A DNA stretch of 27,458 bases from a virus (taxonomy: Duplodnaviria > Heunggongvirae > Uroviricota > Caudoviricetes), in IMG/VR virus record IMGVR_UViG_2703718852_000003, positions 1 to 27,458 of that record. The stretch is one strand, 5' to 3'. The notes under the pieces were generated by a model, which saw nothing but the letters and a program-made list of their open reading frames with translations, did not search any database and was not told where the DNA came from. The translations under genes and the position numbers were made by a program. This document shows, piece after piece, positions 1 through 17,201 of this stretch. How positions within the stretch are numbered: position 1 is the stretch's first letter; every line of letters starts with the position of its first letter.

Positions 1-319
1 TTGCCTCCCCCCCGTTGATGGGTAAAATAGCCGCAATTTTTCGTTTTCAACAAGCGCGGCGCGATGCCGCTTACTCAAGAAGAAAGAATTATGACGTTGT
101 CTCCTTATTTGCAAGAGGTGGCGAAGCGCCGCACTTTTGCCATTATTTCTCACCCCAATAATTAAGCCCAATTTAAAGCTCTTTTATTCTTTCAAAATCC
201 TTTCAGTTAATTGAGGTTGAGTCATATAACTCATTTAAATACATTTGGTTATGTGGCTTCTTTAATTGAAAATTCTTTCATGTAGCTTTAAATCGATCAG
301 GTTGCTTTCATCAAAAATC

Positions 320-376
320 TGTACATATGCTTGTACATAATGTACAAAGCAGCAGAGGTGTTTTGCGATTTGTACA
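320..376. promoter_or_regulatory. Four copies of the palindromic hexamer TGTACA (320, 332, 341, 371) directly upstream of the integrase start; possible int promoter or recombination-protein binding sites
   Basis: Repeats read directly from the sequence; function is inferred from their position 10-65 bp upstream of the int ATG. Confidence 0.3.
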
Positions 377-385
377 AGGTGAGTA

Positions 386-1609
386 ATGGCGCTGTCTGAT
401 GCGTGGTTGCGTTCAGTCGTTGGAAAGGAACGTGATAAGGTTTTGGTTAAATCCGATCGTGATGGTCTGTCTGTCAGAGTATCACCGAAAGGTCGCGTAG
501 TGTTCCAATATCGTTATCAATGGGCAGGGAAAGGTGAGCGTCTTGATATCGGAACTTACCCGGCAACTGGATTAAAAGAGGCCAGAGAAGAAGTTATTCG
601 TCTCCGTGGTGAACTTGAGTCAAACCGTAATCCACGATTTGTCAAGCAGGCTGAAAAACGAAAAGCTACTGAAGCCATGACGGTAGAGTCTGTGATCCGT
701 GCCTGGTATGAAGCATATTGTGTAAAAAATAAAAAAGGTTCTGAACAGATACTCCGCTCGTTTGAGCTGCACCTGTTCTCTAAAATCGGGAATATCCCTC
801 ACGATGCAGCTACATTGCATGATTGGTTAGAAGTCCTGGAGCCTCTTAGCACTAAGACTCCAGCAATAGCAGACCGATTGCTAATTAACGCAAAGCAGGC
901 CCATGTCTGGGCGTATAAGAGAAAGCTCATTGAAACTCGCCCGCTGTCGGATATCACGGGTAAAGATATGGATATCCGTAAAGGTCAGAAGAAACGGTTT
1001 CTGACACATGATGAAATTAAAATCCTTTATGCTGCGATCGATGGTTCTCGAATGGTTCCTAAATACCGGGCCTTCATTAAGCTATTGCTGCATTTTGGCT
1101 GCCGTAGTTCAGAGCTAATTACTGCCAGGGTGGACGATTTTGATTTCATTAATAAGGTATGGACTGTACCACCAGAACGACATAAGACTGGGGAGATAAC
1201 AGGCGAACCGCTAAAGAGGCCCATTATTGAACCGGTGGAGGAGCTTATAAAGAACGCTATCTCTATGAACAATGGTTCCGATATGCTTTTTACTAAGGAA
1301 GGAAGCAGGGAACCCGTTGGTCGAACATCATTGCAGTCGCTGCCTTACAATTTAATGCAGTACGCATGGCGGAGTTTGGGGTATCAATTCCCTCATTGGT
1401 CTCTTCATGATTTGAGGCGAACAGCACGAACAAACTTTTCTGATCTTACTGCTCCTCATATTGCAGAAATAATGCTCGGCCATAAACTGCCAGGGGTTTG
1501 GCAGGTTTATGACAAGAGCGATTATCTAGAAGAACAGCGTAAAGCCTACCAGGCGTGGTGGGAGAGGGTTGAATCGATCATTACTTGTGCTAGCTCAGAC
1601 CCCAACTGA
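386..1609 (+). CDS. int: Tyrosine-type site-specific integrase (phage integrase family)
   Basis: 407 aa ORF with AGGTGA ribosome-binding site; C-terminal catalytic region HDLRRTARTNFSDL ... LGHKLPGVWQVYDKSDY matches the R-H-R-Y tyrosine recombinase signature; lies at the prophage end next to an excisionase. Confidence 0.9.
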   Translation: MALSDAWLRSVVGKERDKVLVKSDRDGLSVRVSPKGRVVFQYRYQWAGKGERLDIGTYPATGLKEAREEVIRLRGELESNRNPRFVKQAEKRKATEAMTVESVIRAWYEAYCVKNKKGSEQILRSFELHLFSKIGNIPHDAATLHDWLEVLEPLSTKTPAIADRLLINAKQAHVWAYKRKLIETRPLSDITGKDMDIRKGQKKRFLTHDEIKILYAAIDGSRMVPKYRAFIKLLLHFGCRSSELITARVDDFDFINKVWTVPPERHKTGEITGEPLKRPIIEPVEELIKNAISMNNGSDMLFTKEGSREPVGRTSLQSLPYNLMQYAWRSLGYQFPHWSLHDLRRTARTNFSDLTAPHIAEIMLGHKLPGVWQVYDKSDYLEEQRKAYQAWWERVESIITCASSDPN

Positions 1610-1763
1610 TAGTCTGTTTTGTCGGAATACTTACAATTTCTCATTCAAGTTAGTTAAGTGGTATTTTACAAATGGAGACAATGTAATGTCTGGTCAAAAT
1701 AACAGCGACGAGATTTGCAATTGATTAGTGGCAGGTTTGGTTCTAATAACATAGGAGTTATTG

Positions 1764-2579
1764 ATGCAGAGCGAGATAATCACGCAGAAAAATGGGAAAG
1801 GTATATTTGATCGAAAGGCTTGGTTAACAGAGTCTAAAAAACTGTATTTATCTGCGAAGCTGTTGAGAAGTGAAGGTGAGCGAAACAAAAAATTGCTTCG
1901 GGCAGCAAGTAAGAAATCTCCTATTGTTCATGAATACATCGATATCGCATCGGCAACTGATCAAACTAGCAGACTTATGTTGGGGTATGCTTTTGAAATG
2001 TTGTTAAAGTCAGCGATTCTTCTAATGAATCTCGGTGCGAGAAAAAAAGCTATTGAAAATGAGTTTTGTAATTATGGGCATAAACTTGATTGTATGGCTG
2101 TTGATTTAGGTTTGCCATTAACCGTTGACGAACTGAAGTTATTGAAAGTTGCGTCTCGAGATATAGTTTTAAATGCTCGATATCCTATTGGAATAGTGGA
2201 TGATAATAAATATATAACAGAGTTGAATGAAAGAAATATTCAGTTGGCAGATGAAAATATTTTTAGGGATATGGTCAGTCTGTATGACAAAATAAAAAGT
2301 ATAGTTGCTAAGTTTGATAATGATGTAGCGAATTGTGCAAATTTCAATATGCTTAGATTGAGTGAGTTTACTCTCTTTATGCGGAATGGTGGTGGACTAT
2401 CATCAAGAGCAATAGTTATCTTTTCGGATAAATTTCCAGAAGTCAGTAAACGCAAGTCATATTTAAAAAAAGCTATCGAAGAACATGCAGGCAAAGTGGC
2501 TTTTTTATATACTTACCGCTGGTCTTCGTTTTCATTCTTTGAAGACACAGGTAAAAAACTTATCCCGCTTGTGGAGTAG
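1764..2579 (+). CDS. Hypothetical protein, AT-rich cargo (moron) ORF between int and xis
   Basis: Long ORF with AGGAG ribosome-binding site 5 nt upstream of the ATG; visibly lower GC than flanking phage genes; no family recognised by eye. Confidence 0.6.
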   Translation: MQSEIITQKNGKGIFDRKAWLTESKKLYLSAKLLRSEGERNKKLLRAASKKSPIVHEYIDIASATDQTSRLMLGYAFEMLLKSAILLMNLGARKKAIENEFCNYGHKLDCMAVDLGLPLTVDELKLLKVASRDIVLNARYPIGIVDDNKYITELNERNIQLADENIFRDMVSLYDKIKSIVAKFDNDVANCANFNMLRLSEFTLFMRNGGGLSSRAIVIFSDKFPEVSKRKSYLKKAIEEHAGKVAFLYTYRWSSFSFFEDTGKKLIPLVE

Positions 2580-2714
2580 TACAGATGAGCTGTGTCCCGT
2601 TGATTATTTTATACTTATGTTAGTAGTATCTTCTTTTGGCACAGAGCAGGTAGTTAGATTAGGTTTGACTCTGTGCCATAGTGGTGTGTCAGCTTACATC
2701 TGATCTAAGGCATA

Positions 2715-2909
2715 TTACTCAATGACTCCTGCAAACCTGTAAATCTTTTGTGATGCCCATTTATTTGGGCAGGATTTAATATCAGGATCTGGAAAGTCTG
2801 GTCTGTATTTCTTGCCAGTTCTCCGGTTTACGCTGTTCCAGCGAAGCACCGTCGATATTGAAACGCCACAGAATTCGGCGACTTGTTTTGTTGTCATTAA
2901 GTTGTTCAT
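2715..2909 (-). CDS. xis: Excisionase / AlpA-like DNA-binding protein
   Basis: 64 aa; N-terminal MNNLMTTKQVAEFCGVSISTVLRW is the helix-turn-helix typical of phage excisionase/AlpA family; adjacent to int. Confidence 0.7.
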   Translation of the reverse strand: MNNLMTTKQVAEFCGVSISTVLRWNSVNRRTGKKYRPDFPDPDIKSCPNKWASQKIYRFAGVIE

Positions 2910-3520
2910 TAATTTACCTCCTGCGGCGGCTCCGGTAGCGGTATCCAGTGGGTTACATTGCGGCTCTGCGTTTCGAAGAACTCCTCACCATTGCGGACAA
3001 CATCAAAAAACTCACCGTCTCGATATTGCGCATAAAGAACGAATGCGCCATCACATAAAATAATTACGTGCTGACCGTCCTCTGGCATTCGCTCACTACA
3101 GCTTATCCAACCATCCGGAGTTACAGGAGGGTTGCCCGACAGCTTGTTCAACTTGTAAGTCTGGCTTACAGGTTCGGCACCATGAAGCATGACGGCGCGG
3201 CAGGCGTTCCAGCCTTCATCAAAGCCGACTATGCCATTATTTAAAGACGGAAGAGCATCCGGCACCACCGACACTGGCTGAGCCATATATAGCGGCTGAA
3301 CATACCAGCCCTTTGATAACCAACTGTCAGCAATGTTTTTGCTCCTGGTTATTGCCGGAATACCTAAGCCATTGTCTGAATGAAGCCACGCCACCGGCTC
3401 TGCTTCCAGTGATGCCAGAGCAATTTCATAAGCACGGCGCTCAACATTGTCTCGCACGTCTAAGCTGCCGATTCGTTCTTTGATTTCTTTAATCAGTTCC
3501 TTATCGGTGAAAGTGGTCAT
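2909..3520 (-). CDS. DUF551 domain protein
   Basis: 203 aa; C-terminal THWIPLPEPP motif characteristic of DUF551 proteins in lambdoid early-left operons. Confidence 0.7.
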   Translation of the reverse strand: MTTFTDKELIKEIKERIGSLDVRDNVERRAYEIALASLEAEPVAWLHSDNGLGIPAITRSKNIADSWLSKGWYVQPLYMAQPVSVVPDALPSLNNGIVGFDEGWNACRAVMLHGAEPVSQTYKLNKLSGNPPVTPDGWISCSERMPEDGQHVIILCDGAFVLYAQYRDGEFFDVVRNGEEFFETQSRNVTHWIPLPEPPQEVN

Positions 3521-12695: not shown

Positions 12696-13736
12696 GTGAA
12701 CATTCAAGCAGTAGACATTTTTTGTGGCGCAGGGGGCTTAACTTTTGGGCTAAAAAAAGCCGGGATTGAAGTTTCTCATGGCATTGATATTGATGAGTCC
12801 TGCCGTTTCGCTATTGAGAGCAATAATCCCTTAACGAAGTTCATTAACCAGTCAGTTACTGAACTGCAATCCAGCGATGTGTCTGCTATGTTCAAGGAAG
12901 GAAATATTAGATTACTTGCAGGCTGTGCCCCTTGCCAACCGTTTTCCAAGTATCGTAATCCAAATAGCAGAAAAGATGATACAAAGTGGCGTCTTTTATC
13001 TGAGTTTCAGAGGATTGTAAGTGATGTCATGCCAGAGCTTGTGACTATGGAAAATGTTCCTCAACTTAGAAATCATAAGGTTTTTGAAGAGTTTGTTAGT
13101 GTATTAAAGACTCTTGGGTATCATCTGTGGTACGACGTTGTAAAATGTTCCGAGTATGGCTTGCCTCAAAATAGACGTAGATTAATTCTAATTGGGTCCA
13201 TATTGGGGCCAATCAGCCTTGATCAAAAAAAAGTAAGCCGTAAAGTTACAGTAAAGGATGCTATTGGTCAGTTGCCAAAAATAGGTGCAGGGGAGAAACT
13301 CGAAAGTGATCCATTGCATCGTTCGCCTAAATTAAGGGATATTAACCTTAAACGAATCTTGCACTCTTTACCAGGTGGTACGTGGGATGATTGGCCTGAA
13401 GAAATTAGAGCGGATTGCCATAAAAAGCATTCAGGTGCTACCTATAAAAGTGTTTATGGACGGATGGTTTGGGACGATACTAGTCCTACAATAACTACCC
13501 AATGTTATGGATATGGTAATGGGCGATTCGGACATCCTGAGCAAAATAGAGCAATAACTTTGCGTGAAGCTGCTATTTTACAATCTTTTCCTATGGATTA
13601 TAAATTTATTGGAAAAAATACGCCTTTTTCATTCCAAAAGTTAGGAACGATGATTGGTAATGCTGTTCCCCCTATAATTGGCCAAGTAATAGGGAGAACG
13701 TTTGTTAGGCATGTTGAGGGGATAAATATCCGTTAG
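12696..13736 (+). CDS. DNA (cytosine-5)-methyltransferase
   Basis: Motif I FCGAGG, motif IV catalytic PCQPFS, motif VI ENV, motif VIII QNRRR; GTG start with GGAGA ribosome-binding site; AT-rich. Confidence 0.9.
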   Translation: MNIQAVDIFCGAGGLTFGLKKAGIEVSHGIDIDESCRFAIESNNPLTKFINQSVTELQSSDVSAMFKEGNIRLLAGCAPCQPFSKYRNPNSRKDDTKWRLLSEFQRIVSDVMPELVTMENVPQLRNHKVFEEFVSVLKTLGYHLWYDVVKCSEYGLPQNRRRLILIGSILGPISLDQKKVSRKVTVKDAIGQLPKIGAGEKLESDPLHRSPKLRDINLKRILHSLPGGTWDDWPEEIRADCHKKHSGATYKSVYGRMVWDDTSPTITTQCYGYGNGRFGHPEQNRAITLREAAILQSFPMDYKFIGKNTPFSFQKLGTMIGNAVPPIIGQVIGRTFVRHVEGINIR

Positions 13737-14394
13737 AGATAATATAATCTTCAGTTGAGTTTATTAATAAACGAAGATATAGATCAACTCTCTCTGCTCT
13801 AGACTTAACTTCTTCTAAGGGGTCAATTTGCCCCTTTTTAGAGAAGCTAGTACTTCCATGCGCGAGTTCGTTTCTGATATCCTTAAGCAAGTCTAAGTCA
13901 ATACCATTTCTACATTCAGGTGAGTTTGCGATAGTTATTCCGTAAGCCTGCGTTATTTTGTGTAATACAGGCTTGCAAACATTACCATTGAATTCTTTAC
14001 GAATATTCAATGAGGCTGAAATTATTCTTTTGGAAATGTCAGTGCCTATCTTTTTATAAAGGGATTGCCCTGTTTCATTATCTGAAACAATTCTATGTAA
14101 TATATTTACTTGAAGCTTCTCCCTGAGTGATGCGTAATTCACCTCATTATCTTGTAAATGATCATAAATTGACTCGATGCAACCTCTGGCAGTATTTTCA
14201 ACTTGATTATATAGCATCATATGAACGGATGATTTTAAAATATTTACCCTTAGGATATTAGATTCTATTTCATCTTGATGCGCTTGCGGATCTAACTGCT
14301 GAGTATGAATCTCTATAGATGATGCAAGAGAAAGCAGTTCCATAATGTCTCTTGCTCTTTCTTCATATTCATCTCGTAAATCAATTAGACTCAT
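13705..14394 (-). CDS. HEPN-like protein (R-x4-HG motif), second gene of the DUF262 operon
   Basis: C-terminal IRNELAHG fits the HEPN R-x4-6-H motif; start 3 nt after the DUF262 stop; 3' end overlaps the convergent methyltransferase by 32 bp. Family assignment by eye only. Confidence 0.5.
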   Translation of the reverse strand: MSLIDLRDEYEERARDIMELLSLASSIEIHTQQLDPQAHQDEIESNILRVNILKSSVHMMLYNQVENTARGCIESIYDHLQDNEVNYASLREKLQVNILHRIVSDNETGQSLYKKIGTDISKRIISASLNIRKEFNGNVCKPVLHKITQAYGITIANSPECRNGIDLDLLKDIRNELAHGSTSFSKKGQIDPLEEVKSRAERVDLYLRLLINSTEDYIISNGYLSPQHA

Positions 14395-14396
14395 TT

Positions 14397-15557
14397 TTAA
14401 ATCCCTAACAACTTATTTTTAACGTAAAAGATTCTGTTTTTTAGCTGGCTGGTATTGTTTGCACTATCAGCAGTAACAAGTGTTTCAAATTCCTCTTCAA
14501 ATAGCCATTCACCTACAGGTACGGCTGGACTCTGGAGTTGTGGGTTAGTTTTTAATGCAAGTGCAGTTCCCACGGCAATGGCTTCGTATCTGGCTCGTGG
14601 GGTGGTTTTACTTGTTGCGGTCTTTTTAAAGCCAATAGGGAAATGGGTAGCAACAAAAGCAAGCATCATTTCAAAATCATGTTTAAAATTATCAACATCT
14701 TGTTGAGTAGTCACAGCTGCTGCTTGTTCATTTAAATAATTATCAATAAAGGGACGGACAAATCCCTTATAGTTTTCTAAATCATTTAAATATGCAAAAA
14801 ATCTCAAAACTAACTCACGATGATCGCCATTCGACCGTTTCCGGTCTGATAATGGAGCTAGTTGGGAAAAAAGTGAGTTTGTTGAGCATGGGGTCACAAC
14901 ATCTTTATAGAACATTGAGGTAGCAGCATCTGAGCCATGCCTCACTTCCATCGCTTCTAATCTTTTAACACCTGAGTTGATCCTTTCAAATAAATCTCTT
15001 CTATGTTGTTCCTCAACATCACCTTTCAACTCAATAAATCTTAGTGAAGCTCTTAAAAATCTTCTTTGGCGGCTAGCTAAAAGATCTGAAAATTTGAAAC
15101 CTTCTAAACTTTTAAGCTCTTTCAAATCCTTTAACTCAAATTGATCGTTCCAAAAATAATAAATAGAGCGTATCCGTTGTGAACCATCAATGATTTCTAC
15201 CCTACCATCTAATTCAGGGTCTTCATTAAATACATCAGCAATGTAAAGGTAAGGTATTGGAAAGTCTAATAGAATACTTTCTATAAAGCGAGAGGCTGTT
15301 TTTGTATCCCACTTGTAATCACGTTGATAATCTGGAATAAAAAGCTCGTTTTTGTCATTTTCAATATTATCACCATACTTTTGAATAATGACTTCAACGG
15401 TCCACTCACGTACATTGTATCCAATGTTTCTCTGAGCGAGTCTGATTTCATTGTCAGCGGAAGCGGTTAAAGCTGCAATTTCAGCCTTTTTTCTGTTCTT
15501 AGCGTGTTCATCTTGTATCTGAGCAAGCTCTTCTTTGAGTTCTTTGAGTGTAGTCAT
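14397..15557 (-). CDS. DUF262 (GmrS / ParB-like NTPase) domain protein
   Basis: Hallmark motifs FIPDYQRDYKWD and EIIDGSQR (DGQQR box); AAGGAA ribosome-binding site; AT-rich. Confidence 0.8.
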   Translation of the reverse strand: MTTLKELKEELAQIQDEHAKNRKKAEIAALTASADNEIRLAQRNIGYNVREWTVEVIIQKYGDNIENDKNELFIPDYQRDYKWDTKTASRFIESILLDFPIPYLYIADVFNEDPELDGRVEIIDGSQRIRSIYYFWNDQFELKDLKELKSLEGFKFSDLLASRQRRFLRASLRFIELKGDVEEQHRRDLFERINSGVKRLEAMEVRHGSDAATSMFYKDVVTPCSTNSLFSQLAPLSDRKRSNGDHRELVLRFFAYLNDLENYKGFVRPFIDNYLNEQAAAVTTQQDVDNFKHDFEMMLAFVATHFPIGFKKTATSKTTPRARYEAIAVGTALALKTNPQLQSPAVPVGEWLFEEEFETLVTADSANNTSQLKNRIFYVKNKLLGI

Positions 15558-16148: not shown

Positions 16149-17201
16149 ATGAAAAATACTGTAAAAATAAACAGTGTTGATTTAATCAACGCTGATTGCC
16201 TGCATTTTATTCAGTCCCTGCCTGATGATTCCATTGACCTGATTGTTACCGATCCGCCTTACTTCAAGGTGAAACCCAACGGTTGGGACAATCAGTGGAA
16301 AGGGGACGAAGATTACCTTAAGTGGCTGGACCACTGTCTGGCCCAGTTCTGGCGGGTGTTGAAACCTGCCGGAAGCCTTTACCTGTTCTGTGGGCATCGC
16401 CTGGCATCTGATATTGAGATCATGATGCGTGAACGTTTCAACGTGCTTAACCATATCATCTGGGCGAAGCCGTCCGGACGTTGGAATGGGTGTAATAAAG
16501 AAAGTCTGCGCGCATATTTTCCTGCCACAGAGCGCGTTCTGTTTGCTGAACATTACCAGGGGCCATATCGCGGCAAAAGTGACGGCTATGCGGCAAAAGA
16601 AAGGGAACTCAAACAGCACATAATGGCACCGCTGATATCGTATTTCAGGGATGCTCGTGCCGAACTGGGTATAACGGCAAAACAAATTGCCGAAGCCACA
16701 GGTAAGAAAAATATGGTTTCCCACTGGTTTGGTGCCAGTCAGTGGCAGTTGCCGAATGAGGCTGACTATCGGAAGTTACAGGCACTGTTTTCCCGTATAG
16801 CGGCAGAGAAGTTTCAGGAACAACAACTGGAACAACCACACCACCAGCTGGTGGCATCTTATGATTCACTGAATCGCAAATATTCTGAATTGCTGGATGA
16901 GTTTAAATCTCTCCGGCGCTATTTCTCCGTATCAGTCTCCGTGCCTTATACCGATGTCTGGATGCATAAACCCGTTCAGTTCTACCCGGGTAAACATCCG
17001 TGTGAGAAACCGGCGGATATGCTCAGGCAAATAATCAATGCCAGTAGTCGACCTGGTGATCTGGTTGCTGATTTTTTTATGGGATCCGGTTCCACAATAA
17101 AAGCAGCAATGGCGCTGGGGCGTCGGGCCTTAGGTGTTGAGCTTGAGTCAGAGCGGTTTAACCAGACAGTGAAAGAGATAAACGAGCTGGTGGGGAAATA
17201 A
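16149..17201 (+). CDS. DNA amino-methyltransferase (N6-adenine or N4-cytosine, beta class)
   Basis: Motif IV DPPY near the N-terminus and motif I FFMGSGST near the C-terminus. Confidence 0.8.

Follow-up and report, generated by a model that had tools for sequence, protein, structure and literature searches.

A predicted HEPN-fold protein in the integrase–excisionase cargo slot of a lambdoid Escherichia coli prophage, a candidate anti-phage protein

Introduction

HEPN domains are recognised by an Rx4–6H motif where helix 3 ends and by a conserved acidic residue in helix 2 (Anantharaman et al., PMC3710099). AbiV and the HEPN-T domains of the AF0298 type usually lack the motif histidine and possess instead a second conserved histidine, contributed by an insert between helices 2 and 3, which has been proposed to form an alternative active site; HEPN-T genes also cluster with restriction-modification operons (PMC3710099). 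Here, we analyse a gene whose product contains a predicted domain of this type. The gene (WP_001190315.1; positions 1764–2579, plus strand) encodes a protein of 271 residues, which we call the HEPN-CTD protein, and lies in a 27,458-nucleotide sequence of a Caudoviricetes virus (IMG/VR record IMGVR_UViG_2703718852_000003, positions 1–27,458). This whole stretch is referred to as the window throughout.

PrrC, which accompanies the EcoprrI restriction system, is an analogue for modules that join a nuclease to a HEPN protein. PD-T4-2 likewise couples two components, a DUF262 protein and a RiboL-PSP HEPN protein. A partner-less design is found in HepS of the Salmonella prophage Gifsy-1, a constitutively expressed, default-inactive, single-protein HEPN abortive-infection system (PMC13043305). 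With regard to genomic setting, the hotspots of P2 and P4 (Rousset et al. 2022, PMC9122126) and the defence islands surveyed in E. coli (PMC10121019) have conserved flanks that enclose interchangeable AT-rich cassettes, defence systems among them. We found no literature on the HEPN-CTD protein, on the two-gene module from which it derives or on the slot between the integrase (int) and excisionase (xis) genes in which it resides.

The gene is cargo of a variable slot in a lambdoid prophage and descends from a two-gene module whose nuclease gene has been deleted in frame. Its product is predicted to combine a HEPN-fold domain with a C-terminal domain of its own kind. We tentatively favour a role as a prophage-borne abortive-infection or defence protein that works alone, and weigh this below against an antitoxin, against non-defensive cargo and against a non-functional leftover.

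Results

In identical E. coli chromosomes, RefSeq annotates a hypothetical protein, WP_001190315.1, with the same coordinates and in its ATG form. The open reading frame comprises 271 or 272 codons depending on the start (1761/1764–2579, plus strand): a TTG in the same frame at 1761 offers a second option, but the homologues all begin at the residue equivalent to the ATG. An AGGAG ribosome-binding site can be read directly at 1753–1757 (plus strand), 6 nt 5′ of the ATG; in an alignment with the intact modules described below, these read TAGGAG or TAAGGG at the same place. The gene has a GC content of 35.4% (30.9% at third codon positions), compared with 47% for the whole window and a mean of 48.7% (s.d. 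5.8) for the other 27 window genes, which corresponds to a z-score of –2.3. Among the 28 window genes it ranks second in AT content, and just 3.5% of 816-bp segments reach its AT-richness.

More than 30 clusters of homologues with equal length and 46–99% identity occur in Enterobacterales, and the ratio of nonsynonymous to synonymous substitution rates (dN/dS) between the gene and its homologues is 0.14–0.18 in pairwise comparisons. A chance open reading frame can therefore be dismissed, and the gene is genuine. A scan of positions 1–3200 against Rfam returned no RNA family and thus nothing to suggest a type III antitoxin RNA.

The window begins at the yjjG–prfC junction, which places the prophage in the 5′ end of prfC. 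The host flank at this left prophage end covers 1–161 (plus strand) and includes a truncated 5′ piece of prfC at about 91–159. In the identical RefSeq loci, yjjG ends directly upstream, and a 23-codon partial coding sequence is annotated at the left junction, which we take to be the prfC fragment. The left border of the slot is formed by a tyrosine integrase of 407 residues with a P4-type arm-binding domain (386–1609, plus strand), which matches the Pfam families Phage_integrase (1e-17), Arm-DNA-bind_3 (3.4e-16) and Phage_int_M (1.3e-07). The conserved right border is a 64-residue excisionase (2715–2909, minus strand), which matches phrog_1553, ‘excisionase’, over its full length (E = 5.9e-35) and, weakly, HTH_17 and MerR.

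Comparison with sister prophages that carry other cargos (blastn) delimits what lies between these borders. Homology stops at 1611–1621, 2–12 bp past the int stop codon, and restarts at 2629–2634 in four of five resumptions and at 2685 in the fifth (locus L024); the sixth locus ends within its cargo. These breakpoints on either side define a variable cassette at 1612–2628, the GC content of which (35.1%) contrasts with 45.5% in the left and 46.5% in the right flank.

Of 5426 complete E. coli genomes, 700 (about 13%) encode the integrase with an identity of at least 90%; the target gene is present in 19 of the 5426 and sits at this locus every time. We counted the cargos in these complete genomes with probes spanning the integrase–cargo junction. 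Besides the target gene (19 genomes), the slot holds an AIPR protein corresponding to AbiU (PADLOC, 2.6e-111; 58 genomes), Dsr1 (76 genomes) and at least three unrelated hypothetical cargos, namely a protein of 331 residues (phrog_5157; locus L001, 4976–5971, minus strand; 54 genomes), another of 239 residues (phrog_8440; L024, 5010–5729, plus strand; 71 genomes) and a pair of proteins with 150 and 160 residues (L020, 4825–5801, plus strand; 28 genomes). The known defence genes AbiU and Dsr1 thus fill the slot in 134 of the 306 junction-typed genomes. As the six typed cargos account for only about 306 of some 700 prophages, leaving about 390 with untyped cargos, further cargo types must exist.

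Conserved flanks, swapped inserts that include known defence genes and a deviant base composition are the hallmarks of cargo in a prophage defence hotspot, and all three are found here. It is thus well supported that the slot beside the integrase is a defence hotspot and that the target gene is accessory ‘moron’ cargo. The initial annotation, made from the sequence by eye, had described an AT-rich 271-codon open reading frame, seemingly well expressed to judge by its AGGAG site, between integrase and excisionase genes, regarded it as a horizontally acquired moron and pointed to integrase-proximal positions as hotspots of anti-phage genes. The gene assignments at both borders, the GC comparison with the flanks, the sharp edges of the cassette and the exchange of cargos at a single site all agree with that description. 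A homology to a housekeeping phage function, which would have argued otherwise, was found neither in the family searches nor by tblastn against phage genomes. The arrangement resembles that of the P2 and P4 hotspots, to which one homologue provides a link, as it lies among the cargo of a P4-like island at ssrA; here, however, the host element is a lambdoid prophage in prfC, and its slot lies between int and xis.

In the clade nearest to the target (73–80% identity), the homologous gene is located 35–40 bp downstream of a gene for a 302-residue protein that has a restriction-endonuclease domain of the Mrr_cat type (PF04471, about 1e-10) and in which a D...D-x-K motif is readable. We found this pair in at least nine distinct loci, and in every nearest-clade locus inspected except the window-type prophage and a phage of Citrobacter koseri. 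The intact modules are located in the P4-like island at ssrA (Klebsiella michiganensis), in two Enterobacter chromosomes, in a different phage in E. coli, in four metagenome contigs and in Serratia marcescens, where the two genes form a bare islet between genes of the LysR and LacI families. A search for related loci with the close alignment gave two genome loci.

Remains of the same module precede the target gene. An alignment of the window with four intact modules identified an operon leader at 1613–1667 (plus strand) that is common to the intact Mrr nuclease–HEPN-CTD modules of other Enterobacterales and is 87% identical to the sequence 5′ of the Mrr_cat gene in K. michiganensis (L003, 6968–7022). 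It is followed by a 12-codon stub (MSGQNNSDEICN, then a stop codon; 1686–1724, plus strand), the remnant of the 302-residue Mrr_cat gene. When aligned to the ends of the intact gene, the stub was found to retain its ribosome-binding site, start codon, first six or so and last six or so codons, and stop codon. The deletion between them, at an ATAA microhomology, removed 873 bp, that is, 291 codons, and is therefore in frame. Since the stub is all that remains at 1686–1724 and tblastn detected no Mrr_cat gene elsewhere in the 27-kb window, the window carries a degenerate, one-gene version of the Mrr_cat–HEPN-CTD module. The earlier picture of a single inserted open reading frame was thus right about a horizontal insert and wrong about a simple one-gene insertion.

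A 17-nt motif at the start of the stub (1688–1704, GTCTGGTCAAAATAACA) recurs just 5′ of the ribosome-binding site of the target gene (1735–1751, GTTTGGTTCTAATAACA). The motif pair is also recognisable in the intact modules; it may be due to chance or may mark an element that both genes have in common and that acts in translation or regulation.

The pairing of a restriction-type nuclease with a HEPN protein in one operon is a feature that the intact module shares with PD-T4-2. In contrast to PD-T4-2 and to PrrC–EcoprrI, the nuclease is of the Mrr_cat type rather than a DUF262 protein or a type I enzyme, the predicted HEPN domain is of a non-canonical HEPN-T type and has an extra domain attached, and the window version has no nuclease. 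PADLOC gave only weak candidate matches for the two module proteins (PDC-S19, 0.0067; PDC-S02, 6e-07).

The C. koseri phage, which differs from the window prophage, contains an analogous stub of 13 codons (MSDQNEECVCFIE, then a stop codon) and an intact homologue (L032, 6001–6816). In a neighbour-joining tree, the stub-bearing genes of the window and of C. koseri were never sisters (0 of 200 bootstraps), so that the partner has been lost at least twice, and a single ancestral deletion shared by the two was rejected. Three-point estimates of dN/dS were 0.18 for the window branch and 0.085 for the C. koseri branch. Both values are within or near the range of the partner-linked lineages (0.10–0.20) and hence give no sign of relaxed selection; both partner-less genes stay under purifying selection. 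At three alignment positions (V54I, A224D and E238K/Q), the two orphan lineages also have changes in common, where about 0.5 such positions would be expected by chance. These changes could reflect a parallel adaptation to the loss of the partner, or recombination. Within the module, HEPN-CTD diverges faster than Mrr_cat, with 83–87% compared with 89–94% identity and nonsynonymous divergences (dN) of 0.076–0.103 compared with 0.027–0.051.

Searches with the target protein gave no meaningful match in Pfam, including its HEPN families, in NCBIfam or in PHROGs, and PADLOC (PADLOC-DB v2) returned only chance-level matches (REase_II, 0.0012 over 40 residues; PDC-S19, 0.0067 over 32 residues). Neither the close alignment nor the wide N-terminal alignment retrieved anything when used as a profile against PDB sequences. 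None of the relatives bears a precomputed Pfam domain. Among 60 family members, one reached PF05168 (E = 0.0028) and one HEPN_AbiU2 (0.017), both below threshold. A protein search with the N-terminal alignment recovered the same unannotated family only, with no sequence bridge to known HEPN families. An exhaustive hidden Markov model search yielded 186 family representatives at 50% clustering, most of them 260–300 residues long and spanning both domains. Those with a named source are all ‘hypothetical’ proteins of Enterobacterales, Pseudomonas, Shewanella and, within the Alphaproteobacteria, Rhodobacteraceae/Paracoccaceae and Rhodovibrionaceae.

One sequence, P0120, was left out of the wide family alignment because it had contaminated it. 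This is a 769-residue protein of the moth Scirpophaga incertulas with 13 profile-matching stretches and jumbled Pfam domains, and it looks like an assembly or annotation chimera. One large protein search that used the contaminated alignment returned mostly p53 matches.

An AlphaFold2 model built with the family alignment (predicted local distance difference test score 86.2; predicted template modelling score 0.84) consists of two domains. The N-terminal domain (residues 17–186; 1812–2321, plus strand) has a four-helix, up-down, all-alpha core that superposes on solved HEPN domains. Structural matches of the model comprise the toxins of minimal nucleotidyltransferase (MNT)–HEPN modules, the sacsin HEPN domain and Csm6, with AbiA and AbiV lower in the list; Foldseek concurs on 1ufb and 2hsb, with marginal E-values. 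The C-terminal alpha/beta domain of about 80 residues (193–268; 2340–2567, plus strand) has conserved residues at R207, G209, G210, W253 and E260, and we found neither a recognisable fold nor detectable relatives for it.

Conservation is concentrated at a small number of positions in the N-terminal domain. W20, L71, Y75, E78, L81, K82, H106 and R139-Y140-P141 are invariant in the wide family. E78, K82, H106 and R139-Y-P are also invariant across an N-terminal alignment of 26 diverse family sequences, and H106 is the sole fully invariant residue in a 60-sequence alignment. The window protein keeps all family-invariant residues; the codons for the central ones lie at 1995–1997 (E78), 2007–2009 (K82), 2079–2081 (H106) and 2178–2186 (R139-Y140-P141), all on the plus strand. 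In the model, E78 is located within the helix formed by residues 55–88, and K82 likewise falls in helix 2. H106 lies in the insert that separates this helix from helix 3, and the helix formed by residues 121–138 ends at R139. By their positions along the chain, these residues reproduce the AF0298-like HEPN-T pattern, with an acidic residue in helix 2 (E78), a histidine in the insert (H106) and the motif arginine (R139) kept, while the motif histidine is lost. E78, H106 and R139 fit the published landmarks residue for residue (PMC3710099), and the N-terminal domain is accordingly filed, by structure and motif logic only, as a predicted HEPN fold of the AF0298/HEPN-T type. The initial annotation could assign the protein to no known family by eye; structure prediction does place it, through the predicted HEPN fold of its N-terminal domain.

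The same three features, with no histidine 4–6 residues after the arginine, are seen in the AF0298-like HEPN-T proteins of the PF05168 clade (PDB 2hsb, 1ufb, 1wol and 1wwp). The target nevertheless differs from these in several respects. It has no PF05168 profile match, its helical bundle is longer (residues 17–186) by two extra helices, and it is fused to the unique C-terminal domain. It also lacks an MNT partner: the adjacent or fused nucleotidyltransferase that defines MNT–HEPN systems of the HepT/MntA type is absent. Finally, the family is found in proteobacterial mobile elements, whereas AF0298-like proteins belong to MNT–HEPN pairs of archaea and thermophiles.

In a second clade, clade B (51–54% identity; prophages of Klebsiella pneumoniae and gut metagenomes), the abutting gene encodes a different partner, with 232–242 residues, across a gap of 2–7 bp. 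This partner has an invariant SLNRHAFAHG motif of the Rx4H form (L008, 7301–7999; also L044 and L049–L051), and it may be a canonical HEPN ribonuclease. As the 232-residue protein matched no family in Pfam, NCBIfam or PHROG and no PDB entry, and hhalign gave no support, its HEPN nature is a lead from the motif only. Comparison rejected a relationship of this partner to the target family or to the HEPN_MAE_28990 protein encoded elsewhere in the window. Other, more distant homologues are solitary or lie behind unrelated small open reading frames; the proteins upstream of distant homologues proved to be related neither to Mrr_cat nor to each other.

The homologues are located in prophages, in the P4-like island, in a mobilisable element that encodes a relaxase and ParA, or beside integrases or resolvases. 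Their neighbours include Abi_alpha/PDC-S47 in the P4-like island, PD-T4-1 (1.4e-183) in a Pectobacterium mobilisable element, a retron-type RT-TIR protein (6e-182) together with a DUF4062 protein in a Citrobacter phage, and a reverse transcriptase (RVT_1) with a KAP NTPase. Such neighbourhoods are the usual signature of defence cargo, which is only an association. A pair of DUF8209 and DUF1493 genes adjoins homologues in Pantoea and Enterobacter, and DUF1493 alone does so in Serratia (L009, 6841–7607; L013, 9037–9821; L012, 6752–7078). The pair may be another mobile two-gene cargo.

Further features of the window concern the prophage rather than the module. In the conserved right flank, 3′ of xis, lies an inverted repeat of two perfectly matching 10-bp arms around a 22-nt loop (TGGCACAGAG ... 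CTCTGTGCCA; 2637–2678). As it falls inside the region common to the sister prophages, it belongs to the phage backbone and not to the cargo. Its minus-strand fold has a z-score of –3.3; with a T-run on neither strand it is not a canonical terminator, and it could serve to bind a protein or could mark where the early-left operon ends.

A second AT-rich island (12696–15557, 35–40% GC) comprises three genes, for a C5 cytosine DNA methylase (12696–13736, plus strand; PF00145, 2.7e-54), a HEPN_MAE_28990/RiboL-PSP HEPN protein (13705–14394, minus strand; 2.9e-17) and a DUF262/GmrSD_N protein (14397–15557, minus strand; PADLOC NsnA, 5.9e-45, and PD-T4-2_A, 4.6e-27). Judged by these matches, 13705–15557 encodes a predicted PD-T4-2-like DUF262–HEPN defence pair in the same prophage as the target. 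Downstream, 16149–17201 encodes an N6/N4 DNA methyltransferase (PF01555, 2.2e-42; PADLOC MTase_II, 3.3e-152). We noticed no adjoining restriction gene, and the enzyme is probably an orphan methylase of the phage directed against restriction.

Discussion

The reading that we tentatively put first is that the prophage encodes, in the HEPN-CTD protein, an abortive-infection or defence protein that is based on its HEPN domain and acts without a partner. An anti-phage role of the protein is what we infer from its predicted fold and from guilt by association. The lysogen would make it as an abortive-infection-type anti-phage protein, presuming that the gene is expressed in lysogeny. Its HEPN domain would act as a metal-independent ribonuclease, probably as a dimer and across the dimer interface as in other HEPN proteins, and would cleave RNA through an alternative site made up of H106 and R139, together with E78 and K82. 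The protein would be inactive by default until a phage cue is signalled by its C-terminal domain or by a conformational change, which makes the C-terminal domain a candidate for sensing or autoinhibition. After the in-frame deletion of the nuclease gene, the HEPN-CTD gene would have kept working alone, with the leader, the ribosome-binding site and the stub still in place. Solo function is favoured by the two independent losses of the partner, by the constraint retained afterwards and by the solitary distant homologues.

That a solo, default-inactive HEPN protein can be a complete prophage defence has its precedent in HepS (PMC13043305). Like the target, HepS is a single HEPN protein encoded as prophage cargo without an inhibitory partner, and it offers a model of a default-inactive HEPN protein that is switched on by a phage protein (PMC13043305). 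In contrast to the target, however, HepS has a canonical Rx4–6H motif (R100–H105). Its family was confined in that study to standalone proteins of at most 250 residues (PMC13043305), from which the target, with 271 residues and an extra domain, is set apart by this description.

Several observations weigh against a solo defence protein. The canonical Rx4–6H motif is absent from the target, where R139 is followed by YPIGIVDD with no histidine 4–6 residues on; the family consensus, ARYPxxxxxxxxY, likewise has no histidine at this distance from the arginine. In the literature, the ribonuclease activity of AF0298-type HEPN domains is a prediction only. Promoter and terminator scans found no promoter-like or terminator-like site above background beside the target gene, and the window leader lacks 12 bp (ATGTATAAGACC) that are present in the intact leaders and hold the sequence TATAAG. 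The gene is also rare, in that tblastn of the target against 50,697 deposited phage genomes and against 72,556 plasmids found no match. Finally, the retention of the gene without its nuclease partner fits an antitoxin as well.

The latter is the most serious alternative, albeit in our view a somewhat unlikely one: the protein would be an orphan antitoxin, immunity or regulatory subunit of the upstream nuclease, left behind when the toxin gene was deleted. It might then protect the lysogen, by way of ‘anti-addiction’, from incoming elements with the same toxin. The recurrent pairing with Mrr_cat 35–40 bp upstream, in at least nine loci and even in the bare islet of S. marcescens, is what a toxin and its antitoxin would look like. 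As the second clade abuts a different protein, the SLNRHAFAHG partner, the HEPN-CTD protein appears as a conserved component paired with swappable putative nucleases. It was only ever the nuclease that was lost, twice independently, and Mrr_cat without HEPN-CTD was not seen in the loci examined, although no systematic search for such genes was made. The faster evolution of HEPN-CTD relative to its partner and the absence of the canonical ribonuclease motif point in the same direction. Against an antitoxin, the invariance of H106, E78, K82 and R139 from Enterobacterales to Pseudomonas, Shewanella and Alphaproteobacteria resembles an active or ligand-binding site and not a mere binding surface, and the distant members are solitary, without a nuclease neighbour. 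Orphan antitoxins usually decay, yet both orphan lineages are under purifying selection. The nuclease-first gene order is also atypical of classic type II toxin–antitoxin pairs.

A more far-reaching idea, which we consider unlikely as it stands, would make the HEPN-CTD family the conserved core of an undescribed anti-phage system. In such a system, the protein would act as a sensor or regulator, either solo or coupled to interchangeable upstream nuclease effectors (an Mrr-like deoxyribonuclease or the Rx4H-motif protein), with chemistry at the alternative His/Arg site, and the two deletions would represent a modular system shedding its effector.

Non-defensive cargo is quite improbable as an explanation. 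Under it, the gene product would, for example, control lysogeny or induction, serve host physiology or virulence as a moron, or act on host metabolism as a HEPN protein that binds nucleotides and is not a nuclease. Most cargos of the slot are indeed uncharacterised, and the DUF8209 and DUF1493 genes that recur beside homologues have no known defence role. The target, however, matches no regulator, virulence-factor or phage housekeeping family, its homologues have bona fide or candidate defence genes as neighbours in at least five unrelated contexts, and known defence genes hold the very same slot in 134 of 306 typed genomes.

We regard it as about equally improbable that the gene is a non-functional leftover of a module that functioned only as a two-gene unit, its reading frame intact merely because little time has passed since the deletion. 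The loss of the partner gene is clear, 12 bp are missing from the leader with no promoter-like site detected, the window branch is among the longest in its clade, and the 19 E. coli copies, being 98.8–100% identical, tell little about selection after the deletion, yet the branch dN/dS of 0.18 shows no relaxation and the family-invariant residues are all kept. The deletion, moreover, is exactly in frame, and the upstream cistron still has its ribosome-binding site, start and stop. In C. koseri, a deletion that arose independently led to the same arrangement, again with the gene intact (branch dN/dS 0.085), and the two solo lineages have three parallel changes where about 0.5 are expected by chance. 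The solo form is also present in E. coli of humans, dogs, cattle, poultry, pigs and dolphins, as well as in IMG/VR and metagenome contigs.

If the HEPN-CTD protein is an anti-phage effector, as in the solo defence reading that we favour, it would add about 190 clusters (at 50% identity) to the single-protein HEPN defences, in a family for which Pfam, NCBIfam, PHROG and PADLOC hold no model. It would also offer a tractable system in E. coli for asking whether catalysis occurs at the non-canonical His/Arg site of AF0298-type HEPN domains, a prediction dating from 2013. The coexistence of intact and partner-deleted modules constitutes a natural experiment on which component is toxin, sensor or antitoxin. 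Whatever the function of the target, the slot between int and xis is polymorphic in a prophage family found in roughly 13% of the complete E. coli genomes; it still holds several uncharacterised cargos and looks promising for mining new defence genes.

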